NCBI GenBank assembly: GCA_021782495.1 | Contig: JAJXUV010000001.1 | Coordinates: forward strand, 182,637 to 246,636 | Direction: 5' to 3' | Length of the DNA stretch: 64,000 nt | Origin: Pseudomonadota bacterium | Lineage (GTDB): Bacteria; Pseudomonadota; Gammaproteobacteria; UBA1113 | Part shown: piece by piece, positions 36,719 to 39,700 of the stretch | Layout of the letters: each line of letters opens with the position of its first letter | Position numbering within the stretch: the first letter of the stretch is position 1 | Program-made: the position numbers

Positions 36719-39700
36719 CTAGAAAAGTCCATATTGGACTCAGCACTCACTTCGCTCGTGCTTCGCCCTGCGGGCGCACTGCGTGCGTCAAAAATGTTCA
36801 CCGCGCTGACGCGCTTTTCGCTCACATTTTTTGGCGCATCTCGTGCGGAATTTTGAGGGGAAAAATGCTCATTTATGCCTATATAAACTCCGCTTTTTCC
36901 CCTCAAAATTCCGCACCACCTGCATCCAAATCTGGGCTTTTTCGTATATTTGGATCTGAGTAAACAACTACGCCATTTTCTTTATTATATATAACAATTA
37001 CCCCAAAAAGCATTTCTTTCCCAAACAATTTCAACGCGTTGTTTGGTATCAAGACTAATGCCAATCACATCAAAACGGCAAGGGTGCTCCCATATTTTTT
37101 GGCTATATAAATAATATTCAGCACTTTGAATAATTTTTCGTTGTTTGGCGCTATTGACCGTTTCAACCCCTGTACCAAATCCCTTTTGTTGTCGATAGCG
37201 CACTTCCACAAAAACCAAATCTTCTTTGTCTTTTAAAATAAGATCGATCTCACCGCGATGACAATGAAAATTGCGTGCCACTAAACTTAAACCTTGTTTC
37301 TTTAAATATTCTAAAGCCCAGGTTTCTGCTTGCTCGCCAATTTCTTGAACGGGTGTTTTACTCATATTATTCCTGTACTGCTTGACCATCTTTAAATTGC
37401 GCCCACACACATTGTCTGTACACTTGTTGATTCGGCCGCAAATACAATTCACCAGTGACACCAGAAAGTCCATTAGCAAGTTGATTAAAATTGATGGCTA
37501 TATCGTAGGCATCGTATCCAAAGGCATACAAGCCCGTTGTATTAGCCGATACAGTATTAGATTTAGCTGAAGTCACCGATGCCGTATCGCTGACATACCA
37601 AGGCAACGTACAAAATTGAATGCCATTTAAATCTTGGTTTTTAAAAGAATCCAGCGTTCCATTGTAAACCACCGAAGTCGCATATACAGGCAGATTATCC
37701 GCATAATAGAAATTTAAAAGTGGTTTAATCGTTCTGGCCTTATCGGGTGTCGCTACCAGAAAAATCACTTGGATATCTTGTCTGCGATTGGGCAAGGTGG
37801 GATCGTTGTTCTTAGCATTGGGTGATTTAGCGCGTAAGGTATTTTTTATAAAAGGATCCAGTGAAGTGCTGTTCGTATAAGACACCGAATCTTGCACATG
37901 CCCACCTAAGTTTGCAAATTGCCTGGCAAACGTATTGGCAATACCCTGTCCCCAAGCATCACCTGGGGCTATCACCAAAGCACTCGTGTACCCTTTAGCA
38001 TAAGCACGGCGCGCTGCTTGTTCTGCGTCATCATTGGGTGATAAAGCAAATTGATAAAAATTGCGTTTTGAGCCTTTGGTCGGAATATTATTCAGCGCCA
38101 AAGTCGGAACGCGAATGGAAGTATCAGACAAACGATTCACTTCTGGTTTGGTCAGCGGTCCAACCACTAAGGTAGCGCCTTCATCGACTGCTTCATTGTA
38201 GACTGCACTTACATCTCCACCAGCTGTATTGTACAGTTTAACCGTGTGCCCTGTAGGATGACGGTAATAGGCTGCCATAAATCCATCTCGCACGGCTAAA
38301 CCACTGCTCGCTGAAGCGCCGGTTGTCGGCAATAATAAAGCAATATGCGAGGCATCGACATTACCCACTGCCGTCGTCATGGCCGGCGCAGCTCCTTCGA
38401 CTCGACTGAGGTTGGTGAATAAAATACTCGCTGGATGATTGGGGTATTTTTGCGCCCAACGTTGATAACTGTCCGGGAAATTGGGTGTTTGGAGATCGGG
38501 ATTTTTCACCAATTCTGCAATGGCAACCCAACCCGCCATTTCGCTGTTTTGCGCATGATCAGCCATCAGAATTAAATTGCCACTCGGCAAACTCACCAAA
38601 CACGATAAAGTAGATTGTCGTACTTGTGCCGATTGCTGACTGGGCAACAAGTCTCCCAGATGGATCAAATCGTAACAATACTGCACTGTTCTGCCCAAAT
38701 TCTGATTGGCGAGACTAGCCAATTGATAATAGGCGCGCGCCAATTCAGGAGGCAAATTTGGTGCACGATGAATGGTTGCTAAATGATTTAAGACCGCTTG
38801 ATAATTGCCTTCATTGGCCGCGACTTTGGCTTCTAAAATAACTTTTTCTTCTTGTTGTCTAGGTGATAAAGTAACGCCGTCTGAAAAAGCCAAATAAGTT
38901 TTGGCTTCTGCCGTTTTACCTTCTACCAGTGCGCGACCTGCCGCTTGAATATAATCATAGGCCTTTGTATTGGCATCTTGGGCCGAATTAGCTTTAGCCA
39001 AATAATCATTGATTGAGTGAGTGTAATAAGAAGGCACTCCGGGTTCTGCTTTGGGTGCAAATACCGTACAAGCACATAATACCAAAAAAAGAACAAAAAT
39101 CGATAATTTCTTAAACACAATGGCTGCTCCCGATTCGACAAGCTGATTGTGGAATCATTATGACATACCTTTAGGACATGATACAAACCAATGCCTTGCA
39201 AAAAAATGGTTTTTTTATGTTTTTAGATAAGGTTTCTATGGCATTTCTCTTTTTTGCATGCTAGACTGTTCCATCCTTTCTGTTAGCTAATTACTGACTG
39301 TTTGGATAGGGGTTAATTTACTTAGTGGCCATGGATTGGGCGAATAGTCCTGCCTTTTCTGTACACTAAATGTTATTCTAGAGAAACGTAACTGCCCACC
39401 CTCGATCTGGACGTACGAAAAAAACCAGATTTGGATGCGGATTGCGTGCAATTTTGAGTGGAAAAAGCGGAGTTTATAGAGACATAAATGAGTATTTTTC
39501 ACGTCTAAATTGGGCACAAGACGCGCCAAATAGGGACTTTTCTAGAGAAAGGCTGAGCTGTTACAGAGAAACACAAAAACACAAGGAGAATGTCATGTCA
39601 AAAGGGCAATCATTACAAGACCCTTTCTTAAATGCATTACGTAAAGATAGAGTGCCTGTTTCTATCTATTTAGTCAATGGGATCAAACTACAAGGACAAG

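Follow-up and report, generated by a model that had tools for sequence, protein, structure and literature searches.

Two inverted hairpin elements at the lpoA-hfq locus

The window analysed here, a 64,000-nt stretch of contig JAJXUV010000001.1 from the gammaproteobacterial assembly GCA_021782495.1, includes a locus with Pfam-marked gene calls for lpoA (LppC), yraN (UPF0102), a diaA-like gene with a SIS domain and a gene with a BON domain on the minus strand, and for hfq and hflX on the plus strand. Two copies of a hairpin repeat, both without coding capacity, lie between these genes in opposite orientations (Table 1). Copy A (274 nt) is oriented as the lpoA-yraN-diaA operon and its end abuts the diaA ATG, and copy B (177 nt) is located between the divergent lpoA and hfq, oriented as hfq. 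[quoted passage not shown]

An earlier note on this DNA, made from the sequence alone, had proposed such an inverted pair, to be refuted by an alignment below significance when computed or by a lack of both further copies and transcription. The pair is borne out by its arms, 36830-36946 and 39414-39530, which span 117 nt with 84% complementarity (blastn within the window, E 2e-31), and a further stretch of 22 nt is shared at 91% (36714-36735 and 39529-39550). The elements extend beyond the limits drawn in that note, and neither blastn nor a covariance model built from this family alone (R1) found a third copy in the 64-kb window. Copies A and B differ in length by one block of ~93 nt between the shared core and the shared tail; this extra length of copy A is a nested insertion, not the ancestral state.

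The perfect hairpin noticed earlier in the long copy is real, with arms of 23 rather than 20 bp, and the second, short palindrome (ATCCAAAT/ATTTGGAT) is present as well, at 36924-36931 and 36948-36955. The hairpin of the short copy had been described as decayed, but it is weakened rather than lost: copy B represents the uninterrupted form, and it does fold less stably than copy A (-44 vs -61 kcal/mol over 141 nt; z against shuffled sequences of -7.1 for copy A and, in context, of -2.9 for copy B). As the same note had remarked, two open reading frames (ORFs) that look artefactual, 36706-36906 (-) and 39442-39870 (+), have a peptide in common (SGKSGVY..INE.FS). Protein coding was rejected as an explanation of the repeat, since conservation is at the nucleotide level, frames are broken between lineages and the element-spanning ORFs match no Pfam family. 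The ORF at 39442-39870 starts at a TTG and crosses copy B in frame with hfq, and would lengthen Hfq by 51 residues; use of this extension is unsupported by evidence, and the ORF extension is absent in strains without the element.

Table 1. Coordinates of the two elements and their parts, in window positions
Feature	Position	Strand	Observation
Copy A, composite element (shell, core and nested insert)	36698-36971	-	Between yraN (36985-37365) and diaA (36104-36697); R1 80.5 bits
Copy A core hairpin, split by the nested insert	36720-36946	-	Perfect 23-bp inner arms 36843-36865 / 36894-36916
Nested insert in the 3' arm of copy A	36737-36829	-	93 nt, 59% GC, small GC hairpins; from the alignment of copies A and B
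Conserved apex of copy A	36863-36896	-	AAAGCGGAGTTTATATAGGCATAAATGAGCATTT on the - strand
Left target-site duplication of copy B	39380-39387		AGAGAAAC; exact 8-bp direct repeat, zero offset from the GTAAC/GTTAC ends
Copy B, complete element, very likely non-autonomous	39388-39564	+	Ends GTAACTGCCCAC... / ...GCTGAGCTGTTAC; lpoA-hfq intergenic region; R1 73.7 bits
Core hairpin of copy B, family-wide module	39414-39544	+	Bounded by TA...TA
Conserved apex of copy B	39464-39497	+	AAAGCGGAGTTTATAGAGACATAAATGAGTATTT
Right target-site duplication of copy B	39565-39572		AGAGAAAC; exact 8-bp direct repeat

Element occupancy varies between close strains

Contigs from other samples that encode an identical Hfq protein, with hfq DNA 98% identical, differ in the sites that the element occupies. 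The window and two of these contigs (L002 and L004) carry the full element upstream of hfq and an empty site downstream. In a third (L003), the site upstream of hfq is empty and a 273-nt copy, with its GC-rich insert in the other arm, is found downstream of the gene, flanked by an imperfect pair (GGTTTGAA/AGTTTGCA, identical at 6 of 8 positions) where the window reads AGTTTGCA once. The fourth (L005) has an empty downstream site and a 57-nt remnant upstream, which consists of both ends plus the last 9 nt of the core and is offset 8 bp downstream of the window insertion. Copy A also occupies its site in L071, the one other contig spanning it. Altogether, three sites are occupied within this species-level population, with empty and remnant alleles.

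Since occupancy differs and sister strains do without the element, we conclude that it is mobile and not required for hfq expression. For the same reason, i.e. its absence at that place from sister strains with identical Hfq, copy B is an insertion and not a dedicated hfq regulatory module, which the earlier note had listed as an option. That note had also let one copy form the hfq leader. Copy B does end 30 nt before the ATG at 39595, as stated there, and its position and orientation make a contribution to the leader plausible, but it is an acquired insertion that the sister strains lack. In annotation, the repeat should be entered as a mobile element, neither as an inversion switch nor as a regulatory RNA of hfq, and its variable occupancy between near-identical strains makes it a useful strain marker.

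The inversion switch deserves separate mention, as the copies are inverted and bracket lpoA-yraN, and the earlier note had suggested that they could invert this segment. We regard homologous recombination between them as an extremely improbable explanation. The longest exact identity between copies A and B is 19 bp, within 84% overall, and falls below the ~25 bp minimum required for efficient RecA recombination in E. coli. The junctions seen in other samples (L002, L004 and L071) all match the window arrangement, and an inversion would part lpoA-yraN from diaA while setting lpoA-yraN head-on to hfq.

The nested insert of copy A has a relative in L003 (806-899), found at the mirror-image position in the 5' arm and in the opposite orientation, with an identity of ~88% estimated by eye and not computed. 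We found no other copy of this GC-rich insert in the window and no relatives of it in the plasmid collection. The two placements suggest that the 93-nt insert may be a third small element, one that favours the ...ATTTGG sequence of the arm. Two short metagenome contigs (L068 and L069) break off within copy A, at CCAGATTTGG and at the apex, which would be expected for a sequence that is repeated in that genome or community.

Terminal repeats, target duplications and candidate transposases

Copy B is delimited by terminal inverted repeats (TIRs; GTAACTGCCCACCC vs the reverse complement GTAACAGCTCAGCC, 10 of 14 positions), and similar ones are present in L003 and L008. Exact 8-bp direct repeats at zero offset from the GTAA..TTAC ends flank both copy B and the element of L008, a Lake Mendota gammaproteobacterial metagenome-assembled genome (MAG), where the ends GTAATTATTCTC.../...GAGTAGTTAC are enclosed by AAAGGGTA. 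Matching 8-bp flanks were detected in 4 of 36 copies, two of which are these TIR-bounded cases, compared to a null of 0.001 per copy obtained from mismatched flanks (an 8-bp match in ~0.1% of trials). Of the identities offered in the earlier note, that of a MITE is therefore the one retained, given sizes of 177 and 274 nt, within a MITE limit of ~300-400 bp, no coding capacity, TIRs, target duplications (exact for copy B and L008, 6 of 8 positions for L003), and many relatives whose presence or absence varies between strains.

Most of the other lineages have ends of another kind. Their hairpins are bounded by YTAR 4-mers, including TTAA six times in one assembly and CTAG/CTAA flanks in Halomonas, Pseudomonas and Halieaceae, with non-palindromic repeats (TAAA/TAAA and AAGC/AAGC) elsewhere, and the ends themselves read N8-10 followed by TGAAAAAG, like the inverted repeats of IS5-family insertion sequences (IS). 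These IS5-like ends and YTAR duplications represent a concrete lead on the transposase. The core of both window copies has TA at either end, as does that of most lineages; TA is itself palindromic, and the duplication that can be proven in the window lineage is the 8-bp one outside the shell. IS66 elements combine inverted repeats starting with GTAAGCG and 8-bp direct repeats (PMC11946415). The window-lineage ends start with GTAAC(A/T)GC or GTAATTAT and share only GTAA with this sequence, while the 8-bp repeats agree, and we treat a possible IS66 origin of the window lineage as a lead and not as an assignment.

In the mechanism that we propose, a DDE transposase encoded elsewhere would cut and paste the elements. 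In the window lineage the ends and the duplication length look like those of IS66; IS5-like ends and 4-bp YTAR flanks prevail in the other lineages. Once inserted, an element would be transcribed as part of a host message, judging by position and orientation, with copy B lying in the 5' region of hfq and copy A inside an lpoA-yraN-diaA transcript. Judging from ERIC and Correia elements, the resulting long RNA hairpin could then affect how the mRNA is processed or how stable it is.

The same TAGAACCTATCTCAAAAT inverted ends surround an unrelated interior in L028 (11433-11608), and two further loci (L038 2452-2739 and L047 3772-4205) combine these ends with the conserved hairpin and one or two nested GC-rich inserts. 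The unrelated interior and the nested inserts, including that of copy A, indicate that interiors are exchangeable cargo and that the elements are themselves targets for further insertion; judged from sequence, the architecture is modular and mosaic, as in BIMEs. On Pseudomonas syringae-group plasmids (L074 ~2470-2505 and L072 282-1330), the element abuts the end of an IS5-family IS (GGAAATCCTGAAAAAGAC) at a shared CTAG, a junction that is consistent with the same target preference. The possibility that the apex is a relic of a transposase start and stop was rejected after a weak test, with no half-site-only matches in the plasmid collection and no adjacent ORF in L028.

A widespread family with a nearly invariant apex

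Pattern and similarity searches identified at least 50 relatives in hosts of 31-65% GC, so that copies beyond the two in the window do exist. The hosts include Legionellales-like MAGs, Halieaceae, Halomonas, Pseudomonas plasmids, Fukatsuia, and a plasmid of Bacteroidota. Scanning a genome collection with an apex 19-mer, which was too lineage-specific (5 of 18 matches were real), yielded full-length relatives in two proteobacterial MAGs, one of them from Lake Mendota Gammaproteobacteria, while a Halieaceae MAG contributed three copies. Scanning metagenomes with AAAGCGGAGTTTATANNNNNATAAATGAG returned 40 loci, with 7 and 8 contigs derived from single assemblies. In the plasmid collection, similarity searches further picked up Halomonas sp. 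PA16-9, in which a 1.8-Mb replicon has 7 such places, Candidatus Fukatsuia symbiotica, Haliscomenobacter hydrossis (Bacteroidota) and many Pseudomonas plasmids. The apex motif had no match in IMG/VR, in the phage collection or in 5,426 E. coli genomes, and literature searches with element sequence strings returned nothing relevant. Rfam 15, used at a permissive threshold, gave nothing relevant in the window region or in 20 other loci; the matches to copy A were chance microRNA-hairpin matches with E values of 0.0014 to 0.31 and scores far below the gathering thresholds.

All copies fold as a single hairpin of ~140 nt with a common plan. From the base, this plan begins with a stem specific to each lineage and continues with an internal loop rich in purines (5' ACGAGG / 3' AACGAAG), another stem and the pairing AAAGC/GC(A)UUU, followed towards the tip by a 3x2 loop (GGA/GA), a G.U-capped AU stem and a variable loop. 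The window copies add a shell with GTAA...TTAC ends around a core hairpin of ~130 nt and carry a diverged form of the ACGAGG/AACGAAG loop. The apex (AAAGC-GGA-GUUUAU-loop-AUAAAU-GA-GCAUUU) is nearly invariant, and its AU stem (GUUUAU/AUAAAU) changes with compensation, to UUUAC/GUAAA or UUUAGC/GCUAAA. Arms are near-random between lineages that retain at least 24 specified apex bases. The Pseudomonas copies, which were found via their arms, have a more variable apex, yet GCGGAGU.UAC...GUAAAUGAGCAUU is kept.

Relationship to ERIC

ERIC (enterobacterial repetitive intergenic consensus, also called IRU or MITEEc1) is described as a MITE of 127 bp that has TIRs and is flanked by TA (PMC3184786); at 30-711 copies per genome, it has been reported from Enterobacteriaceae and Vibrionaceae (PMC10969869). 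We compared the two families in both directions, using R1 and a second covariance model (R2) derived from six enterobacterial ERICs alone and run unfiltered over 54.5 kb. R1 produces full-length, same-strand alignments with ERICs from E. coli, Klebsiella, Salmonella and Kosakonia, at scores of 20.6 to 8 bits. Conversely, R2 matches members of the present family over their full length, at the right place and on the right strand, with the highest scores for L043 (33.5 bits, E 6e-7), L024 (30.6 bits) and L049 (29.5 bits), followed by L057 (27.8), L041 (21.6), L037 (21.1) and L058 (20.1); the best matches are strand-concordant in 11 of 11 cases.

Several features are common to the two families. 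Both consist of a non-coding, intergenic, TIR-bounded hairpin of ~127-140 nt with a conserved centre and, apparently, TA at both flanks, and both follow the block order 5' AAGGCG ... (G)GA-G-YUUAY-loop-RUAAR-U-GA ... CAACGMA 3' with a covarying apical stem, which in ERIC reads 5' AAGGCG ... GA-G-CUUAC-loop-GUAAG-U-GA ... CAACGCA 3'. In each, the strand carrying the motif folds better than its complement (-56.5 vs -40 kcal/mol for ERIC). ERIC is moreover transcribed together with adjacent genes, and an effect on mRNA decay has been reported (PMC3184786, PMC10969869), exerted in Yersinia by exposing an RNase E site (PMC10969869). Unlike in ERIC, the apex of the present family has a different and much more conserved sequence, the hosts are not Enterobacteriaceae or Vibrionaceae but include Legionellales-like bacteria, Pseudomonas and Halomonas as well as a Bacteroidota plasmid (with none in the 5,426 E. 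coli genomes), and the window lineage carries additional shell ends of the form GTAA...TTAC, with 8-bp duplications in place of TA. A bona fide ERIC (R2 71.7 bits) was also found in L008 (4504-4630), 320 nt upstream of the window-type element, which is itself located just upstream of pnp. The coexistence of the two in one MAG shows that they are distinct families, and ERIC proper seems to occur outside Enterobacteriaceae and Vibrionaceae.

A structure conserved on one strand

When 37 copies are aligned with MAFFT by sequence only, 76% of cells pair, compared to 61% after shuffling and 37-47% when the pairing partners are slid, and 39 of 52 pairs display double changes. The model-fitted alignment of 47 copies gives 79% and 42 of 52 pairs, and leans towards structure by construction. 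The covariation across copies that the earlier note had proposed to look at thus supports one hairpin with two-sided changes. The motif strand is more stable than its complement in 36 of 37 copies, by 10.4 kcal/mol on average, and unpaired positions outside the apex, counted in 17 lineage representatives, are 78% purine (325 purines vs 89 pyrimidines). Taken together, the compensated arms, the purine bias of unpaired bases on one strand and the conservation of the apex suggest a hairpin that is selected in single-stranded form, most likely as RNA.

Relative to their neighbours, 16 copies are oriented as both genes, 4-5 are antisense to both, 11 lie between divergent genes and 9 between convergent genes. 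The antisense copies were confirmed as real, and all six copies of the window lineage are oriented as the gene immediately downstream. A scan of the window copies for sigma-70 promoters and intrinsic terminators remained at background, and -35-like boxes, judged by eye, vary between lineages. By inspection, we also rejected an IHF or Fis site at the apex, where the consensus does not fit, and a K-turn, since the loop is 3x2 and not a 3-nt bulge with tandem GA.

These patterns raise the question of whether the hairpin is primarily a functional structured RNA, i.e. a cis-regulatory or protein-binding module or a small RNA (sRNA), that was spread by transposases and has a regulatory meaning at hfq and diaA. 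We regard this as unlikely, if worth serious consideration. The compensated arms, with the apex and internal loops kept across hosts of 31-65% GC, the strand difference in stability, the purine-rich unpaired bases and the uniform orientation of the window lineage would all fit such a function, as would a GGAG followed 5 nt on by an AUG, both exposed in loops in ~70% of copies, and the effect of ERIC RNA on mRNA decay (PMC10969869). However, the AUG is absent from both window copies, sister strains with identical Hfq lack the element, and 4-5 copies are antisense to the genes on both sides. Scan and inspection revealed no conserved promoter or terminator, and no Rfam family matched, which also speaks against the discrete sRNA gene among the options of the earlier note. 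Selection on the structure could, moreover, serve the element's own benefit.

A more speculative and rather improbable extension is that the core hairpin found in this family and in ERIC represents a functional RNA module of ancient origin, whose apex, with a GA/GA-type internal loop that closes a G.U-capped AU stem, and whose purine-rich internal loops would be read by a conserved host factor (an RNase or RNA-binding protein) and which would have been repeatedly captured and spread across phyla by IS5-like and IS66-like transposases. If so, ERIC-type repeats would be mobile cassettes of post-transcriptional control rather than junk. ERIC has been used for genotyping for 35 years and is described as confined to Enterobacteriaceae and Vibrionaceae, and we know of no established function or transposase for it. 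A sister family outside the ERIC hosts provides comparative leverage on what the hairpin is selected for and on which transposases move it.

Comparison with other mobile repeats

Coxiella burnetii QMITE2 elements are 150-190 bp long, with TIRs and direct repeats of 7-9(11) nt that are unique to each copy (PMC5896051). They resemble the window elements in size and TIRs, in their intergenic or 3' untranslated location, in the existence of full-size and truncated versions, and as targets of nested insertions (PMC5896051), and their host belongs to the same order as the window host, the latter as inferred from Dot/Icm genes. Unlike the window copies, QMITE2 is described as built around a GTAG REP targeted by IS1111; the two were compared by description only, and the window copy had no match in the plasmid collection during this comparison. 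MITEPsy1 of Pseudomonas syringae has IS5-like ends and a CTAG/YTAA 4-nt duplication and transposes in vivo (PMC3189936). Most non-window lineages resemble it in their N8-10 + TGAAAAAG(Y)C ends, insertion at CTAG/YTAA and 4-nt duplication, but MITEPsy1 is 100 nt long and not a full-length hairpin, and the window copies have other outer ends and 8-bp duplications; identity with MITEPsy1 was rejected, as it lacks the conserved apex. Correia elements (CREE/NEMIS) are co-transcribed, form an RNA hairpin that is cut by RNase III, and influence neighbouring genes (PMC10969869). They are likewise hairpin MITEs of ~100-155 bp with TA flanks, but share no sequence similarity with the present family, are restricted to Neisseria, and contain a central IHF site that is not matched by this apex.

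The strand-specific hairpin and its conserved unpaired bases could alternatively reflect recognition of folded single-strand DNA, either as a REP/REPIN-type element moved by an HUH transposase (RAYT or IS200/IS605-like) or through integron-attC-like recombination, a scenario that we consider very improbable. The orientation bias (~64% of flanking genes) could follow the replication strand under this scenario, and Coxiella QMITE2 does contain a GTAG REP (PMC5896051). The exact 8-bp and 4-bp target duplications nevertheless argue against it, as HUH single-strand transposition leaves none, and the TIRs resemble IS5/IS66-type ends. REP/REPINs are palindromes of 20-40 nt that carry a 5' GTAG/CGTC tag, lack a target duplication and come with an associated RAYT, whereas the present elements measure ~140-180 nt and up to 270 nt, carry duplications, have no conserved 5' GTAG tag across lineages, and do not occur in arrays or cassettes.

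For the hairpin-MITE interpretation and its link to ERIC, a number of observations point the other way. No recognisable target duplication was found for copy A. The likeness of the window lineage to IS66 consists of GTAA ends and 8-bp repeats, and the ends are not GTAAGCG. Among the called genes of the window and the 4 kb past its end there is no transposase Pfam family, a 204-nt ORF at 32965-33168 (-) that is not among the called genes being unchecked, and no IS sharing the element TIRs was found in the collected loci; we infer mobilisation in trans, and the partner transposase was not found. Nearly all members of the family were found via the apex motif, which inflates its apparent invariance. 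R1 scores on ERIC are modest (8-21 bits), and R2 gives copy B 7 bits (E 6.6) and copy A a misregistered generic hairpin match on both strands; the ERIC link of the window copies is transitive via other lineages, because R2 does not specifically recognise them. Transcription of copies A and B is a prediction from position and orientation, and orientation is skewed only ~80:20 in co-directional contexts, which gives little backing to an obligatory RNA role and could stem from a replication-strand bias. The conserved one-strand structural signature across phyla is the only part that merits follow-up.

Host and other repeats in the window

Dot/Icm type IVB genes (DotH/IcmK, TrbI-like) and several ankyrin-repeat proteins were found at ~1-4800 and 27000-31100 of the window, which also encodes a mevalonate-pathway cluster with HMG-CoA reductase and three GHMP kinases / MVD. 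The presence of Dot/Icm, mevalonate-pathway and ankyrin genes suggests that the host is a Legionellales-like intracellular gammaproteobacterium. A second, unrelated hairpin repeat family occurs at 47379-47499, 50878-51040 and 18206-18264, with 88% identity over 121 nt between two of the copies, inverted ends of the AGGGCCTGTTGACAT type and no match to R1 or R2. This family is probably another MITE, and presumably corresponds to the repeat that the earlier note had labelled Repeat-A.

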